Shown here: in pieces, positions 666 to 61,590 of the stretch
How positions within the stretch are numbered: position 1 is the first letter of the stretch
How the letters are laid out: each line of letters starts with the position of its first letter
Source of the DNA: an uncultured Mycoplasmatota bacterium
Lineage (GTDB): Bacteria; Bacillota_I; Bacilli_A; RF39; UBA660
Direction: 5' to 3'
Length of the DNA: 64,000 nt
Assembly (NCBI GenBank): GCA_900548725.1
Contig: URLV01000001.1
Location: forward strand, 3,591-67,590
Notes under the pieces: generated by a model
What the model was told of the DNA's origin: nothing
The model's database searches: none
What the model saw: only the letters and a program-made list of their open reading frames with translations
Translations under genes and position numbers: made by a program

Positions 666-878
666 CTATTTAATAAAATCACACTTTACTCTATTTAATA
701 ATAATTTCGTATATTCTTCATCTTCAATTCTATTAATAGCAAAACACTTATTTCCTAAATTCTTAAAACTTGCTCCAGAATGATATAAAATTTTCTCATC
801 TATCATTAAAAAATCTCTATGATACTTCATAGAGATTTGACGACTTATGGCTTCAAAAGTTTCATAAGTACCAATCAA
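666..878 (-). CDS. hypothetical small protein (70 aa, TTG start); its start region overlaps repeat copy A
   Basis: ORF track only. No recognisable motif. Its 5' end lies inside the 40-bp repeat that also occurs upstream of the Abi gene. Confidence 0.2.
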   Translation of the reverse strand: MIGTYETFEAISRQISMKYHRDFLMIDEKILYHSGASFKNLGNKCFAINRIEDEEYTKLLLNRVKCDFIK

Positions 879-880
879 TT
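838..880. repeat. 40-bp direct repeat copy A (hairpin CTTATG-N13-CATAAG)
   Basis: The sequence acgacttatggcttcaaaagtttcataagtaccaatcaat is 36/40 identical to 1791-1830. Confidence 0.7.
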
Positions 881-901
881 TTAGTATATAACTTTTATAA
901 G

Positions 902-1768
902 TTAAATATTCTTATAAAAGCCCATTATTTTCAAAATATTATCTATTTTGATTGATTTAAGCTTATTATCTAAATCTTTTATTTCATTATTAATTAATTT
1001 AACAAATTCTTTTTTCTTTTCTTTAGGTAATAAACTTTCCATGCATTTCATTACCATATAAATATTAACTGATTTTTCATTATAATTTTTTTCAATATAT
1101 TTAAATGATATTCTAAATTTACTATGGAATGAAAATAATCTATCATTATGAGCACATATATTTCTAATCATTGTCATATTTACGATTATTTGTTTTAACA
1201 CTTTATCTGACAATTTAAAGTATTTACTTATATTTTGTCTATCCGGTTGTTTTAGTATAGCATATAATCTACTTAATTCTCCTAATGTTAGAATTTTAGT
1301 TAATACAAACGGTGGAACAAACCCATACTCACCAATATAATGAGTGACAGCTTCATGTTTTCCATTTTGTTTATCTATTTCTTCTTCTATAACATTAATT
1401 GATTCTGTAATAGTCGCTTCATTAACTGTATTATCAAAATTTTCTTTAATTAAATAACCTTTTATACCATATTTTAAAGATATTGTTTCTGCTAATAAAG
1501 ATTTTAAAATTAGTTCAATTTCTAATGAATATTTAAGAAATATATTTCTTAAATTTTTATCAAATTCAAACAAAGAATATATTTCGTCAAAAGATACATT
1601 ATTTTTATATTCATTATTTATATTTTTAAAAACATCTTTATAGGTATTTATGATTGAATAATAAGAATAAATTTTGATTTTGTTTAAAGCATCTCCTTTA
1701 TTATTAACAGATACACCTTTTGATATTATATAATCTAATAATTCATTAGAATTCTTATATTCTTTCAT
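902..1768 (-). CDS. Abi_2 family abortive infection protein (AbiD/AbiF-like)
   Basis: The C-terminal motif MIRNICAHNDRLFSF matches the Abi_2 signature (R-N-x-x-AH-x-x-RL[WF]). The protein is alpha-helical and 288 aa. It has its own RBS, GGAAGTGAG, before the ATG. Confidence 0.6.
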   Translation of the reverse strand: MKEYKNSNELLDYIISKGVSVNNKGDALNKIKIYSYYSIINTYKDVFKNINNEYKNNVSFDEIYSLFEFDKNLRNIFLKYSLEIELILKSLLAETISLKYGIKGYLIKENFDNTVNEATITESINVIEEEIDKQNGKHEAVTHYIGEYGFVPPFVLTKILTLGELSRLYAILKQPDRQNISKYFKLSDKVLKQIIVNMTMIRNICAHNDRLFSFHSKFRISFKYIEKNYNEKSVNIYMVMKCMESLLPKEKKKEFVKLINNEIKDLDNKLKSIKIDNILKIMGFYKNI

Positions 1769-1789
1769 AACTCACTTCCTTTAATAAAA

Positions 1790-1830
1790 AAACGACTTAG
1801 GGCTTCGAAAGTTTCCTAAGTACCAATCGA
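1790..1830. repeat. 40-bp direct repeat copy B (hairpin CTTAGG-N13-CCTAAG); on the minus strand it is followed by a T-run
   Basis: The sequence is acgacttagggcttcgaaagtttcctaagtaccaatcgat. Both stem halves are changed in a compensatory way relative to copy A. The minus strand reads ACTTAGG...CCTAAGT then cgttttttt, which is terminator/attenuator-like and sits immediately 5' of the Abi RBS. Confidence 0.6.
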
Positions 1831-2371
1831 TATAAATCATATCATAAATTATTATCATCGTCAATAATTTGTACAAAACTTTCTAAATTTCCATAAAAGG
1901 TTATGCATTAAAACATATCCACCTGCTAATTAAATGTTATAATAATTACTTAATAACTTTGATTTTTTTTTCAAGAGAACACTTTATATATCAACTTATA
2001 ACTTATAATTTTATATTAACGTTATTAATACTTTCAAAAGAAATTAAGTCTAATATTATTTGTCATGGCATTTAGTTGCTGATATTTTTCTTCCACTTAT
2101 CTCATACATTTTTTCTTTTATATTCATCCAAAACCCTCCCTTTTTAAAGAACAATACAAAAATAAGATATCTGCATATTTATCTTCATATTATTTCTTTT
2201 ATTTTATATTATAACATTACATACATACAACATCAATATAGAAATATATAAATGATTAATTTTAAATTTTTGTAAAAAAAAAGAAACACATCAACAAGAA
2301 TGTGTCCCTTGAATATTATTCTACAATATTTTTTAATTTAAAACATCAAATTAATTTAATATCGTAAACAA

Positions 2372-3310: not shown

Positions 3311-5312
3311 TCTTATTTTTTCTCATCTGTATAGTTGCTTCATTAAATGCATCTTCTACTAATTTTAAGTCATCATTTATCATACTAAATCCCACTGCAA
3401 CACCATACTCATATGGTAATTTCTTAAATTCTTTTAATAATTTTTTAATATAACTAACAACTTGCTTTTCACTATAACCAACTAAATAAATCATAAATTC
3501 ATTACCATCAGTTCTTAAAAGTTCACTATTTTCTAACTGTGTTTTAAATAAAGCATTAGCGCAAGCTTTAATTTGCTTATCTCCTTCTTCATGTCCAAAA
3601 GTATCATTTAAATATTTTATATTATTTAAATCTAATACTATAACAGCTTGTGGATATACAGTATTTTGATTCCATATTTCCATTCTATCATTCAAATAAT
3701 TTCTATTTTTTAAACTAGTTAACATATCAACATATCTAATTTTTTCATTATTTTTTATTTTAGTATTTAATACAACTTTCTTCTTATTTCTAATAATTAT
3801 AAATATACCTATAACAATAACAATTATTAACATAATTATGTATTTAGCCAGCTTAACCGCTCTACTACCAGCTTCATAAGTTTTATAATATTTTATTAGA
3901 GCTAAATCAGTTACTTCATTAGGATTTAAAGAATTTATATAACTACTAAATAATCTATAAAAAGTATCACTATCATTTTTATAATAGAAATTATAACTAT
4001 CTCCATCAACTGTATCACTTAAAATAATATCTACATTACTAACATTATCAATAATATATGAATCATAAGTTAGCTTATCTACTAATACAACATTATTCTT
4101 CCTTAATAATTTTCTTACATCTTTATTCTTTTTATAAGTTTTAGTAACAACATTTTTATAATTACTTAAATAACTATATAAATTACTATTTTCTAAAACA
4201 TATACATCTCCATTATATGCTTTCAAACTATCAACATTAATCTTTAATTCTTTATTACTTATTAAATAATAATCTATTTTATAATTAGTATTAATTTTCT
4301 TATATTGTCCATTATAATTATTTTGTCCAAAAAATACATCTATTTTCTTCTTATCAATATCAAATTTTAAATCTTTGTATTTTCTAACTCTATTATATGT
4401 AAAATCAACATCACTAAATTTATTAAATAAAGTTAAATATTCACTTGCTATACCGCTAAATTTACCTTTACTTAATAGTTGATAAGGTTGAGAAACTATA
4501 AAATCAAATTTATAATTTTTATCAGTCAATTTATCTTCATCTTGATCACTTATATTTAAATTTTCAATGAACAAATTATAATTATTAGTATTATAACTAT
4601 CTTCATAATTTGCTTCCATCCATTGATTATAATATTTAGTTACAATAGAATTTAATACATCATCATTACCTAAATGTAAATAATAATATACTTTAGCATC
4701 ATTAAAGAAATAACATATGTTATAGCCTTTACTAATTATTTTATCTTCATACTGAATTCTAGGAACTATAATATATGAAACTTCTTTATTTTCAAAGTCC
4801 TTAAACAAATTATCCGTATTATCATAAGATTTAATTGTTCCACTCAAACTATAAAATGAACTTATATAATTTAAATCATCACTAAGGACACCTATAGTAC
4901 TATCTTTTATATCATTAATATTAGTAACGGTACTATCATCTAAACTTAATAGAACATAGTAATCTGTATAAAACAACAAATCTCTCTTATCATATGAATT
5001 ACCAACACTAAATCCAAAAGATTCATTTTTATTAGCAACAGAATACACAGAACTATTTAATTTTAAATCTAAATCTTCATCTAATTTATTTATAAAATCA
5101 AAAAACACACCATTACCATTTTTTCCAAATATATTTATATCATTAACAACGTTTATTGTATAAACACTGTTTTTATTATTACTAATCCAAGTTTTTTCAC
5201 TTATAGTTAAACTATTTTTATCTTTAAAAATTTTATAAACTCCTAATATAATACCACTTATTAGAAGCAGTGAAACAATACTAATTAATATAATCTTTTT
5301 AATTTTTTTCAT
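3282..5312 (-). CDS. membrane-anchored sensor protein with C-terminal GGDEF-type domain carrying degenerate signature (DGNEF)
   Basis: The order is an N-terminal TM, an extracytoplasmic domain of about 430 aa, a second TM (IIMLIIVIVIGIFIII), then a GGDEF fold. The GGDEF fold shows LTSLKNRNYL, VLDLNNIKYLNDTFGHEEGDKQI and RTDGNEFMI where RxGGDEF is expected. Confidence 0.6.
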   Translation of the reverse strand: MKKIKKIILISIVSLLLISGIILGVYKIFKDKNSLTISEKTWISNNKNSVYTINVVNDINIFGKNGNGVFFDFINKLDEDLDLKLNSSVYSVANKNESFGFSVGNSYDKRDLLFYTDYYVLLSLDDSTVTNINDIKDSTIGVLSDDLNYISSFYSLSGTIKSYDNTDNLFKDFENKEVSYIIVPRIQYEDKIISKGYNICYFFNDAKVYYYLHLGNDDVLNSIVTKYYNQWMEANYEDSYNTNNYNLFIENLNISDQDEDKLTDKNYKFDFIVSQPYQLLSKGKFSGIASEYLTLFNKFSDVDFTYNRVRKYKDLKFDIDKKKIDVFFGQNNYNGQYKKINTNYKIDYYLISNKELKINVDSLKAYNGDVYVLENSNLYSYLSNYKNVVTKTYKKNKDVRKLLRKNNVVLVDKLTYDSYIIDNVSNVDIILSDTVDGDSYNFYYKNDSDTFYRLFSSYINSLNPNEVTDLALIKYYKTYEAGSRAVKLAKYIIMLIIVIVIGIFIIIRNKKKVVLNTKIKNNEKIRYVDMLTSLKNRNYLNDRMEIWNQNTVYPQAVIVLDLNNIKYLNDTFGHEEGDKQIKACANALFKTQLENSELLRTDGNEFMIYLVGYSEKQVVSYIKKLLKEFKKLPYEYGVAVGFSMINDDLKLVEDAFNEATIQMRKNKNAFEDNDDK

Positions 5313-5910: not shown

Positions 5911-6804
5911 ATGGGATATGAAGATTATATAGAAACATATGGAATCAATTTAACAGAAAAAGAAGCAACTAACATAATAAAATCTTTATTTGAATTGTAC
6001 GAAATAAAAAAGGAAAAAGGTACACTCTATCATCCTGGTGATGAAATTCCATACAACATAATAAATCTATACATGAATTTTATAAATAAAAAAGATCACA
6101 CAATAATATATGAAAACTATAAGTATAAATTTATTTCTAATGAAAGTATTGTAGAACCAGGTATTACTAAAGAAGAAATTGATGGAATAGAAAATGTATA
6201 TAATTACATAAGCATTTTTCAAAAAAATACACCAATAAACATATTCATTGAGTCATTTAAATTACATGCAAAATTATATGAAAAATGTCCTCACCCAGAA
6301 TTTGGAACAAAGTTAAGAGAAGACACTGCAGTTTTGTATGACACACCATATGAAGTTTTGCCAGGCGATTTATCAACTAAGGAATTTAATAAATACATTA
6401 GCAAAACATACGTTTATCAACCTTCAAATAAATTAATAAATTCATTAAACAACAAAACATGGGTGGATTTAAAGATATATAACACTATTTTCAAATATAT
6501 AAATGATTGTATTATTGATTGTGTAAATTTAATAAAATTACAACCATTTGATGATGGAAACAAAAGAACATTCAGAGCATTATTAAATTTATTATTTAAA
6601 CAAGCCGATATTCCACCAATTTACATAAAAAAAGATGAAAGAGATATTTATAAAAGAGAATTATTAAAAGCCATATGCGATGATAATTATGAAGATATTA
6701 TACAATTTTATTATTACAAAATTGCTGATTCAATAATAAGTTTAGGAATTAATAAAAATAAAGAAGAAAAACCAAAAAAATTAAAAAGAGAAAAAAGATA
6801 CTAA
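5911..6804 (+). CDS. Fic/DOC family protein with degenerate active-site motif
   Basis: The protein carries QPFDDGNKRTFRALLNLLF, which aligns to the Fic motif HPFx(D/E)GNGRxxR with H->Q and G->K substitutions. The rest is helical and has a lysine-rich C-terminal tail. Confidence 0.5.
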   Translation: MGYEDYIETYGINLTEKEATNIIKSLFELYEIKKEKGTLYHPGDEIPYNIINLYMNFINKKDHTIIYENYKYKFISNESIVEPGITKEEIDGIENVYNYISIFQKNTPINIFIESFKLHAKLYEKCPHPEFGTKLREDTAVLYDTPYEVLPGDLSTKEFNKYISKTYVYQPSNKLINSLNNKTWVDLKIYNTIFKYINDCIIDCVNLIKLQPFDDGNKRTFRALLNLLFKQADIPPIYIKKDERDIYKRELLKAICDDNYEDIIQFYYYKIADSIISLGINKNKEEKPKKLKREKRY

Positions 6805-6885
6805 AATTTTTACTTAGTATCTTTTTATATAAAATCTCCCCGTTAAAACATTATCTATTTCTAAAATCGCCAACAGACAATATAT

Positions 6886-53261: not shown

Positions 53262-53335
53262 TGGAGGACCCAGTCGGATTTGAACCAACGATCAGGGAGT
53301 TGCAGTCCCATGCCTTACCACTTGGCTATGGATCC
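53262..53335 (-). tRNA. tRNA-Cys (GCA), CCA encoded
   Basis: The hand-folded cloverleaf has acceptor GGATCCA/TGGGTCC with one GU, D-arm AGCCAAGTGGTAAGGC, anticodon loop CTGCAAC, T-arm GGTTCAAATCC and a 3' TCCA. Confidence 0.8.
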
Positions 53336-61233: not shown

Positions 61234-61590
61234 TGGTGGAGCCGGTGAGAATTGAACTCACGTCCAAAATACTTTCTTATCCAACATCTACAAGTTTAGT
61301 TAGAACAAATTATTCATTAATAAAAAAGAGTCTAACAATCCTATTTATTAATATAGTTTATAAATATTCATCAATTATCCTAAACAAAACAATTGATATA
61401 TCTTATATATATGAACCCTAATCAAATCTATAAGCAAATAAGATTAAAGTGCTTTATTGCCAAATTAGGCAAATGCTAAAGCGTTATTATTAAATGTTTT
61501 GTCAGTTAATTTAAACTGGTTGCTAATTAAGGGATAGCACACCACTTGCAGTTAGATAGAAACATATCCTGTCGAAACCATTACGACCCC
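61234..61590 (-). ncRNA. ssrA: tmRNA (ssrA), tag (A)DKTFNNNALAFA
   Basis: The 5' end is GGGGTCGTAATGGTTTCGACAGGA. The 3' tRNA-like end is GGACGTGAGTTCAATTCTCACCGGCTCCACCA. The tag reading frame is UAACU-GAC AAA ACA UUU AAU AAU AAC GCU UUA GCA UUU GCC UAA, which parallels the B. subtilis layout. Confidence 0.85.

Follow-up and report, generated by a model that had tools for sequence, protein, structure and literature searches.

AbiF proteins are the toxins of type III toxin-antitoxin (TA) systems in which a non-coding RNA (ncRNA) encoded upstream of the toxin gene blocks the HEPN site of the protein (PMC13064643, PMC12737573). The structure 8VZ6 shows a Prevotellaceae AbiF bound to its ncRNA, AbiFr (PMC12737573, PMC13064643), and the accounts drawn on here give the PbAbiF complex as two proteins and two RNAs (Zilberzwige-Tal et al., Cell 2025; details from PMC12737573, PMC13064643, PMC12373285). 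In the phi027 prophage of C. difficile (Saunier et al. 2025), the RNA RCd22 starts at a sigA promoter, holds two hairpin abiF motifs (Rfam family RF03085) and mostly stops at a terminator ahead of abiF, sometimes reading through (PMC12373285). RCd22 neutralises the toxin in cis as well as in trans, binding it directly, its stems tolerate compensatory mutations and not disruption, and its deletion leads to a 17-fold de-repression of abiFCd (PMC12373285). Transcription of the lactococcal gene abiD1 is, in the summary given by PMC13064643, very weak. The locus analysed here lies near one end of a 64,000-nucleotide (nt) stretch of DNA from an uncultured Mycoplasmatota bacterium (GCA_900548725.1, contig URLV01000001.1, positions 3,591 to 67,590; hereafter the window) and consists of an Abi_2 gene bracketed by two 40-nt direct repeats. 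With a probability of roughly 0.75, it is an AbiD/F-type (Abi_2, HEPN RNase) type III TA or abortive-infection module whose 40-nt repeats are two copies of an RNA antitoxin.

The abi gene and its flanking hairpins

The abiD/F-type toxin gene (902-1768, minus strand) encodes a 288-amino-acid (aa) Abi_2/HEPN RNase. Its assignment to Abi_2, made in a preliminary description of this DNA from the sequence alone, is borne out by Pfam (PF07751, E=2.9e-41, residues 31-212), and PADLOC's AbiD model covers the whole protein (E=1.6e-51). A phmmer search of the PDB retrieved 8VZ6_A, an 'Abi family protein' (E=9.9e-12, residues 2-217), in an alignment that places the HEPN motif RNICAH of the window protein (residues 202-207) opposite RNSCCH; by tblastn, the protein is 28.6% identical to phiC2 AbiF (E=2e-14). 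Its homologues number 1336, in uncultured low-GC gut Bacilli, and the 120 listed are all at least 86% identical.

The repeats lie where the preliminary description had put them: copy A occupies 840-879 and copy B 1792-1831 (plus-strand coordinates), and the two are 952 nt apart from start to start and identical at 36 of 40 positions, with 12 bases as the longest identical run. A search of the window with a degenerate 40-mer (up to 3 mismatches) returned just these two copies, where shuffles (n=100) lead one to expect 0. The covariance model R1, built on 27 distinct copies from the genome loci described below, likewise gave two matches in the 64 kb, copies A and B, both at abi. The window has a G+C content of 22.7%, and its sequence is also found as a contig of the human-gut metagenome-assembled genome (MAG) GCA_900771845.1.

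On the minus strand, which is the coding strand, the RNA of copy B reads AUCGAUUGGU-ACUUAGG-AAA-CUU-UCG-AAG-C-CCUAAGU-CGU and that of copy A reads AUUGAUUGGU-ACUUAUG-AAA-CUU-UUG-AAG-C-CAUAAGU-CGU. Both have the same topology, namely a 7-bp stem (consensus A-CUUA[U/G]G ... C[A/C]UAAG-U), a 3-nt 5' internal loop (AAA), a 3-bp stem, a 3-nt loop and a 1-nt 3' bulge (C). The T-to-G and A-to-C differences that had been taken as matched changes are indeed a compensatory pair in this stem (G-C versus U-A). Folded alone, the hairpins reach -6.9 and -4.7 kcal/mol (z of about -0.3 to -0.5), no better than shuffles; because the single hairpins are thermodynamically weak, the case for a structure rests on covariation.

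Transcription signals arrange the two copies in a compact module, all of whose features lie on the minus strand. A sigma-70 promoter (1836-1864; TTGACG, 17 nt, TG-n-TATGAT), scored 10/12 by the scan and carrying an extended -10 TG, is separated from copy B by 5 nt, and a TTGAC[AG]-17-TAxxxT promoter stands at the same distance in 14 of the 14 upstream copies compared. Transcription is predicted to start at about 1827-1829, and the RNA then opens with the conserved (C)GAUUGGUA. Hairpin unit B (1790-1833; stem-loop 1795-1821, A-CUUAGG / AAA / CUU-UCG-AAG / C / CCUAAG-U; R1 71.1 bits, E=1e-16) is the predicted 5' leader and antitoxin small RNA of about 42 nt. Directly 3' of the hairpin is a U7 tract (1786-1792; UCG-UUUUUUU), and a U-run is kept 3' of all upstream copies compared; together, hairpin B and U7 make a predicted leaky intrinsic terminator or attenuator between the RNA and the toxin open reading frame (ORF). 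The ribosome-binding site (RBS), GGAAGUGAG, follows at 1771-1779, two bases 5' of the ATG at 1768, and AAGGA-GUGA at this site is kept among related loci. The earlier observation that copy B sits directly 5' of the Abi RBS with a T-run on the coding strand, in an attenuator-like arrangement, agrees with this map, in which copy B and its U-run form a leader right behind the promoter.

At the other end of the gene, copy A begins 22 nt past the Abi stop codon, within hairpin unit A (838-881; stem-loop 843-869, A-CUUAUG / AAA / CUU-UUG-AAG / C / CAUAAG-U; R1 68.7 bits). The module ends in a strong intrinsic terminator (808-838) with a 12-bp stem, AAAUCUCUAUGA / UCAUAGAGAUUU, an AGUA loop and a U-run; the segment 795-900 folds at -24.1 kcal/mol (z=-3.3), a value equalled by 0 of 200 shuffles. 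This terminator also stands 3' of the downstream hairpin in L010, L012, L015, L020, L028, L033, L035 and L036 (L-numbers label the loci examined for comparison) and 3' of the lone hairpin in the Abi-less loci L009, L025, L030 and L031. The hexamer TATACT, which resembles a -10 element, lies 6 nt 5' of the GAUUGG of hairpin A, and a hexamer of this kind occurs 6-7 nt ahead of GAUUGG in every downstream copy compared. By this promoter-like feature, the downstream copies may also be transcribed independently.

Covariation and strand of the structure

Approximately 100 distinct copies of the hairpin from genomes, metagenomes and phages were available for comparison. Among the 40 distinct sequences from genome loci, 99.8% of cells are paired and 5/7 outer-stem pairs are changed on both sides; adding the phage copies (47 distinct) leaves pairing at 99.8% and raises the pairs changed on both sides to 6/7. 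An independent set of metagenomic copies, collected with unconstrained stems (49 distinct), gives 99.0% and again 6/7. In none of the three sets was the observed covariation score reached by any of 500 shuffles, and pairing falls to 14-55% when the 3' partner is shifted by one, two or three columns. Covariation in three sample sets thus upholds the view of the preliminary description that selection acts on the hairpin, which is no mere duplication scar.

That description had left open whether the selected structure was an RNA hairpin or a protein-binding palindrome. G·U or U·G cells number 11 in the genome loci and 20 in the metagenome set, and because on the opposite strand such pairs would turn into A·C mismatches, the selected structure is an RNA on the Abi strand. 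The first alternative therefore stands, and a DNA palindrome or operator is ruled out by the same pairs. The inner 3-bp helix and the apical AAACUUUNGAAGC are invariant among copies selected by pattern; in copies that the model alone picked up, rare substitutions occur (A21 to U or G, and C32 to U).

Relatives of the hairpin and their link to Abi_2

A scan of 185,579 species genomes with a 25-nt core, leaving three variable positions free, yielded 35 loci, all of them from uncultured low-GC gut Bacilli or 'Tenericutes' MAGs. An Abi_2 gene lies beside the hairpin core in 24 of these loci. Applied to the same 35, R1 recognised 60 copies (up to five in L008), and in 16 loci a second hairpin stands across the Abi gene from the first. 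In RNA orientation, the hairpins occur in three settings: promoter, hairpin, U-run, RBS and Abi_2 gene; the end of an Abi_2 gene, hairpin and terminator; and promoter, hairpin and terminator with no Abi gene.

A metagenome scan with all six stem positions per side free listed 80 loci, 51 of which have a well-formed hairpin. Among 70 metagenomic hairpins, 22 are located just 5' of an Abi_2 homologue, 16 just 3', 20 at contig edges and 12 in contig interiors without a nearby Abi gene. Direct flanking of Abi_2 is thus seen for 38 of the 50 assessable hairpins (76%), unlike dispersed repetitive extragenic palindromes (REP) or miniature inverted-repeat transposable elements (MITE), and the concern raised at the outset, that the 40-mer might be common genome-wide without association to particular genes, is not realised. 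A REP/MITE-like palindrome is ruled out by copy number as well: there are two copies in 64 kb, and one or two exact core matches with up to five model matches per genome locus (n=35).

The full bracket is found in 15 metagenome loci, where the Abi proteins are 47-84% identical to that of the window; with the 16 genome loci, the layout is retained between Abi proteins just 47-90% identical. Upstream-type copies carry G-C/G-C at the top of the stem, followed by the U-run. Downstream-type copies carry U-A/G-C in the clade of the window and G-C/A-U in the L007 clade, followed in each by a separate terminator. Because both types are conserved across Abi clades, the duplication of the hairpin is old and maintained.

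Several loci depart from the simple bracket. L008 (2989-4693) and L021 (7722-7904) hold tandem arrays of two to four self-contained hairpin genes adjoining one or two abi genes; every unit combines a TTGACA-17-TATAAT promoter with a GC-rich terminator, and the units repeat at intervals of approximately 140-145 nt. No upstream hairpin was detected for the first abi gene of L008 (4800-5663). In L018 (5869-6147), L032 (5938-6795) and L039 (6021-6810) the flanking hairpins are intact beside decayed abi genes, which are truncated (98-aa ORF) or frameshifted into three or four frames, a pattern that fits decay of a toxin with its antitoxin kept.

Solitary hairpins in L006 (3644-3687) and L016 (1266-1309) are followed by a gene tail (..ELFPNREEEKIITFAKKI*) and the gene MKQIVTLEKEIAFK. 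The same tail and gene flank a complete Abi module in L017, so at least some orphan hairpins seem to be remnants of rearranged modules. L031 has two hairpins 2.2 kb apart (4522-4565 and 6764-6807) with no Abi homologue between them, each followed by a duplicated segment of about 60 nt (TTTGATATCACATT.ATATAAAAA..AAAAGTACGATAGACAAAG) 5' of a copper-ATPase-like gene.

Copies in phages

In a scan of viral contigs (IMG/VR) that left the stems free, 23 sites matched the pattern, and seven of these have perfectly compensated stems: L046 (11429-11472), L048 (2654-2697), L050 (8-51), L052 (9272-9315), L047 (4288-4331), L056 (677-719) and L062 (1726-1768). Their stems are unlike those of the window (CCCCGG/CCGGGG, CCACGG/CCGUGG, GUUAGA/UCUAAC and others), and no Abi_2 homologue was found near any of the seven in the DNA fetched. 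A BLAST search of GenBank phages and plasmids with the 51-nt hairpin gave no match.

The L046 and L052 hairpins lie 18 and 47 nt past phage tRNA genes (tRNA-Cys, tRNA-Met), and that of L048 is followed by a terminator. In L047, L056 and L062 the hairpin lies between a major-tail-like gene and tail-chaperone-like genes. By analogy with other type III systems, the phage hairpins could be antitoxin mimics; for the copies in L047, L056 and L062, a role as terminator is equally possible.

Blower and colleagues are said to have reported in 2012 on phage pseudo-ToxI, a mimic in which the phage genome carries the RNA antitoxin of a host type III system but no toxin. The seven viral contigs resemble these in having the hairpin and no Abi_2 in the fetched DNA. 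They differ in that expression of the phage hairpins, or protection by them against AbiD/F, is conjecture, and in that three of the seven are terminator-like after a tail gene.

Module boundaries and the ORF6N gene

The region of the window about 90% identical by blastn to L010, L012, L033 and L036 extends from 805/808 to 2087/2091, with no homology outside it. This conserved module (805-2091, minus strand) is made up of a left-end segment, a spacer of about 190 nt, the promoter, hairpin, abi, hairpin and terminator, and reaches about 260 nt upstream of copy B. Its junctions fall in an ORF6N-family gene (Pfam PF10543) whose C-terminal part is PLD-like, the insertion site being between the codons for ..VMLD and SDLAKLY... 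At the left junction (2056-2127, minus strand), a degraded ORF6N N-terminal fragment reads MNIKEKMYEISGRK|ISATKCHDK*, recognised by sequence inspection with no statistic attached. Its counterparts in L010, L012, L013, L022, L033 and L036 read '..IYEIRSKQVMLD|REISATK*', and the intact form is '..IYEIRGKQVMLDSDLAKLY..'.

On the far side of the terminator lies the fossil C-terminus of ORF6N (666-824, minus strand), which forms residues 19-70 of a spurious 70-aa ORF (666-878). By BLASTP, residues 19-64 of that ORF match residues 247-292, the last to align, of an intact 296-aa ORF6N protein of L036 at 27 of 46 positions (59%, E=2e-17); the L036 protein itself matches Pfam ORF6N at 1.5e-28. The first 18 codons of the 70-aa ORF are hairpin and terminator stem. 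Copy A does overlap the TTG start of the ORF at 666-878, as had been noted, but the ORF is a composite of hairpin, terminator and ORF6N fossil and not a gene. A protein-coding role for the repeat, as the start of this ORF, is ruled out on the same ground and by an in-frame stop codon in copy B.

The fixed insertion position in ORF6N is seen in several Abi clades (L007, L029, L010, L012, L013, L022, L033, L036, L038 and the window). In L007 and L029 the ORF6N gene resumes (SDLAKLY..) about 110 nt past the terminator. Between clades, the opening ~70 nt of the module are kept (GA[AG]ATATC[AT]GCAACCAAATG..ACTAGACTTAATT.CTTTTGA). A terminal inverted repeat is possible, its perfect core (ACCAAATG / CATTTGGT) being only 8 nt long and unequally distant from the two junctions; it is not counted as established.

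In the window, the module has YihY/BrkB, GGDEF and ABC ATPase genes as neighbours. A terminator-like hairpin with a U-run is present at 2281-2310 (minus strand), about 100 nt 3' of the YihY/BrkB gene, which makes the Abi module a separate transcription unit. None of the fetched loci shares the neighbours of the window, so that a synteny search for an empty site between the YihY and ABC genes returned nothing. The only Rfam matches in the window at the gathering threshold are a transfer-messenger RNA (61234-61590, minus strand, 129.5 bits) and a tRNA (53265-53335, minus strand).

In the Abi-less alleles L009, L025, L030 and L031, which occur in other contexts, upstream region, promoter and terminator are the same, with a single hairpin. 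Recombination of one hairpin copy with the other can probably remove the toxin gene or put it back. Look-ups of the exact protein returned nothing beyond the same assembly and a single Logan contig with its end in hairpin B; an Abi-less allele of the same species was not found by them. In that Logan sample (SRR1761699), the assembly breaks inside hairpin B, where the end of L069 and the start of L002 overlap by about 31 nt ending in ..GGAAACTTTCGAA. Many homologue-bearing contigs are just ~1.0-1.5 kb long. These observations suggest that several contexts share the hairpin in one sample, for example Abi-plus and Abi-less alleles.

Proposed mechanism and alternative explanations

The reading of the locus as a type III module draws on the repeats, promoter, U-run, terminator, covariation and its strand, HEPN motif, AbiF homology, association with Abi_2 and conservation of the bracket. 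In the mechanism proposed, the constitutive sigma-70 promoter (1864-1836, minus strand) would start transcription at about 1828, and the first ~42 nt would fold as the hairpin at 1795-1821, followed by U7. Most transcripts would end there, giving an abundant small RNA, and a minority would read through the RBS, the abi ORF and the second hairpin (843-869) to the strong terminator (808-838). The hairpin would bind an AbiD/F dimer and block the HEPN active site, the stem needing only helicity and the near-invariant apical AAACUUUNGAAGC and 5' GAUUGGUA providing contacts. A phage that cuts off or degrades the labile RNA would free the RNase, which would arrest the cell. With a hairpin at each end of the messenger RNA, each toxin message would carry two antitoxin units, matching the 2 protein : 2 RNA composition of PbAbiF. 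A trans-acting character is supported by the self-contained promoter-hairpin-terminator units, the tandem arrays and the hairpins kept beside broken abi genes. The earlier suggestion of a repeated regulatory hairpin comes close to this explanation as regards control of Abi; control of a downstream ORF falls away, as that ORF is not a gene.

Several points weigh against the antitoxin reading. The functional steps (transcript termination with read-through, RNA-toxin binding and neutralisation, toxicity, a phage trigger) are assigned to this locus by analogy with RCd22/AbiFCd and AbiFr/PbAbiF. Efficient termination is uncertain, given a weak hairpin (-5 to -7 kcal/mol) and a simple terminator scan that did not call hairpin B with U7, the loop limit of the scan being below the 13-nt apical region. 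The apical 'invariance' is partly imposed by the search patterns. No Abi_2 was seen near 12 of the 50 metagenomic hairpins that could be assessed, nor at about 11 of the 35 genome loci or the seven phage copies, and the hairpin RNA may have a partner or role beyond the AbiD/F toxin. RF03085 misses the window hairpin, R1 misses RF03085 sites and the internal-loop asymmetry is mirrored between the two, which leaves homology of the RNAs unproven.

A purely cis-acting element, with copy B and U7 as an attenuator, copy A as a 3'-end stabiliser or terminator and no antitoxin function, would account for the U-run after every upstream copy and for a gene without a separate promoter. It would also fit the very weak transcription of abiD1, as PMC13064643 summarises it, and the response of abiFCd to RCd22 deletion (17-fold; PMC12373285). 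It is nevertheless improbable, because a terminator needs a stable stem and not a near-invariant 13-nt apical sequence and 5' flank maintained over stems that differ at 6/7 pairs. Copy A is not needed for termination, since a much stronger terminator of its own follows it, and stand-alone promoter-hairpin-terminator genes, tandem arrays and phage copies would be senseless for an element acting only in cis; in both tested AbiF systems, moreover, the RNA also acts in trans by binding protein (PMC12373285). A shade less probable is a general RNA element serving a host or phage factor other than AbiD/F, in processing, stability or termination, that the abi module merely uses. Copies without a nearby Abi_2 do lie upstream of efp (L040), ileS (L011) and a sporulation-like operon (L006, L016), and phage copies right behind tRNA genes (L046, L052) or with major-tail genes on one side and chaperone genes on the other (L047, L056, L062). 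However, three quarters of assessable copies directly flank Abi_2, the only two copies in the 64-kb window are both at abi, and at least some solitary copies appear to be module remnants, as the flanks that L006 and L016 have in common with Abi-bearing L017 indicate. In addition, 4-15 kb were seen around each orphan, and a cognate abi could sit elsewhere in the genome.

The least probable of the alternatives, and a very unlikely one, is that the repeats are either sites of recombination or the scar of an insertion (att/attC-like palindromes or a target duplication) and Abi a mobile cassette. The preliminary description had entertained a cassette-like insertion, and the repeats do not hold up as the junctions of one: homology spans about 805-2091, inspection of ORFs showed no recombinase gene beside the module and each hairpin unit has its own promoter or terminator. 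The conserved unit exceeds the repeats, and the true junctions lie in the split ORF6N gene. Inspection of ORFs in the window and the inspected loci, which was not a systematic domain scan, revealed no recombinase or integrase gene adjoining the module. G·U pairs and strand-specific covariation indicate selection on an RNA, not on a DNA palindrome, and the conservation of both copy types across Abi clades 47-90% identical points to an old duplication, not a fresh scar. Still, the Abi-less alleles L009, L025, L030 and L031 resemble crossover products of two copies, the module is found in different genomic contexts across species, and the Logan assembly break inside hairpin B marks a branch of the graph there; against this, at most 12 identical bases in a row make the copies a poor substrate for recombination. 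What survives of the cassette idea is one element, the existence of Abi-less alleles with one hairpin, and not the repeats as insertion junctions.

A further proposal goes beyond the antitoxin reading and is tentative, being on balance doubtful as a whole: the hairpin (GAUUGGUA plus 7-bp stem plus AAACUUUNGAAGC) may be a second, uncatalogued class of AbiD/F antitoxin RNA, whose two-sided copies permit loss and re-acquisition of the toxin and whose phage copies are mimics. If so, recombination would remove the toxin or bring it back with one expressed antitoxin staying behind in every case, which would explain the orphan promoter-hairpin-terminator genes. The phage copies without abi, two of them right behind tRNA genes, would then disarm host AbiD/F as pseudo-ToxI does ToxIN. 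AbiF with its small RNA was presented in 2025 as a type III TA system and a likely ancestor of Cas13 with its CRISPR RNA, and RF03085 is so far the only catalogued RNA motif for AbiF. A second RNA solution for the AbiD/F family would widen the sequence and structure space available for the evolution of guide-like RNAs. R1 is a ready covariance model for annotating loci with this hairpin, and the bracket layout, the orphan and arrayed RNA genes and the phage copies offer leads on antitoxin dosage, safe loss of toxin genes and phage counter-defence by RNA mimicry.

Comparison with known systems

Integron attC sites and gene cassettes share with this locus a short imperfect palindrome present as direct repeats around a single defence gene. 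Unlike integron cassettes, the locus has no R''/L''/L'/R' boxes, no integrase was seen, and there are a promoter and terminators of its own and selection at the RNA level, including G·U pairs. An integron attC/cassette is ruled out by these transcription signals together with module boundaries that lie outside the repeats.

ToxIN, AbiQ-antiQ and CptIN are similar in placing an RNA antitoxin 5' of an endoRNase toxin, in repeating antitoxin units and in acting by abortive infection. In these systems a terminator between antitoxin and toxin sets the RNA:protein ratio, to which the layout of the window may be likened. Their toxins have the ToxN/AbiQ fold, whereas that of the window is Abi_2/HEPN. 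Antitoxin repeats of the ToxIN type are tandem units of 34-36 nt cut by the toxin; those of the window are 952 nt apart, and the units of L008 and L021 are separate genes. A type III system of the ToxIN type is ruled out by the Abi_2/HEPN toxin and by the repeat spacing.

The lactococcal proteins AbiD1, AbiD and AbiF belong to the same protein group as the window protein, in line with its PADLOC AbiD match, and are described in PMC13064643 (citing Anba 1995; Bidnenko 2009; Grafakou 2024) as having a conserved upstream non-coding region needed to tolerate the gene and very low expression. No Lactococcus record occurs among the 75 of 118 plasmid matches listed, and the lactococcal leaders are known here by description.

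AbiF-AbiFr is closer, with an Abi_2/HEPN toxin bearing an RxxxxH site and a short conserved hairpin ncRNA directly 5' on the same strand. The window protein is distant from PbAbiF, the 8VZ6 chain being found just by profile search (E=1e-11), and from phiC2 AbiF, a second RF03085-type homologue to which it is 29% identical. RF03085 does not match the window at its gathering threshold (37 bits), nor at E<=10 on slices of 1851, 81 and 111 nt, and it has no match in 18 related Abi loci. No Rfam family matches the hairpins, the slices searched at E<=10 giving noise only. Positive controls were recovered in phiC2 (37.6 bits), on a plasmid of Phocaeicola (59.1 and 44 bits) and on one of B. fragilis (40.1 bits); the Phocaeicola AbiF, a close relative of PbAbiF, shares 54% identity with the 8VZ6 fragment. 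Reciprocally, R1 found no match at the motif sites of RF03085-type loci.

RF03085 consists of a 6-bp stem, a 1-nt 5' bulge, a 3-bp stem, a loop of about 11 nt and a 6-nt 3' internal loop (CAAAUC). Its sequence, CCCGCC-A-AGC-loop-GCU-CAAAUC-GGCGGG, may be set against ACUUAGG-AAA-CUU-UNG-AAG-C-CCUAAGU in the window. The two hairpins are of similar size and both have two helices, with the asymmetry of the internal loop mirrored (6 nt on the 3' side versus 3 nt on the 5' side). On this sequence comparison, the window hairpin is treated as an RNA motif distinct from RF03085 that would serve a distant clade of the same toxin family. The comparison was made with the RF03085 model and its sites, and the hairpin could match AbiFr variants of Zilberzwige-Tal et al. 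2025.

In the Phocaeicola massiliensis plasmid OY726013.1 (L043), RF03085 is present on both sides of abiF, at 827-863 and 1854-1913. The upstream copy lies 14 nt ahead of the start codon and is followed by CGUUUUUUU, as is hairpin B of the window, and the downstream copy, directly after the gene, has a 25-nt insertion in its loop. One hairpin before the gene and one after it may be a general trait of AbiF.

RCd22 and the window locus agree in the succession of SigA promoter, hairpin motif or motifs, terminator (a predicted one in the window), RBS and abiF, and in having two hairpin motifs per transcript. The RNase motif R202/H207 is common to AbiFCd and the window protein, and in both RNAs stem pairing matters and stem sequence does not. 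In RCd22, both motifs are in tandem 5' of the gene and the terminator hairpin is separate, whereas the window has one motif 5', doubling as the predicted terminator stem, and one 3'. AbiFCd-RCd22 belongs to a prophage lysis module and the window locus to a chromosomal island, and motif sequence and topology differ. An AbiD/F type III TA is thus a known kind of system, described in 2025, and what is new here is its RNA motif, one absent from Rfam.

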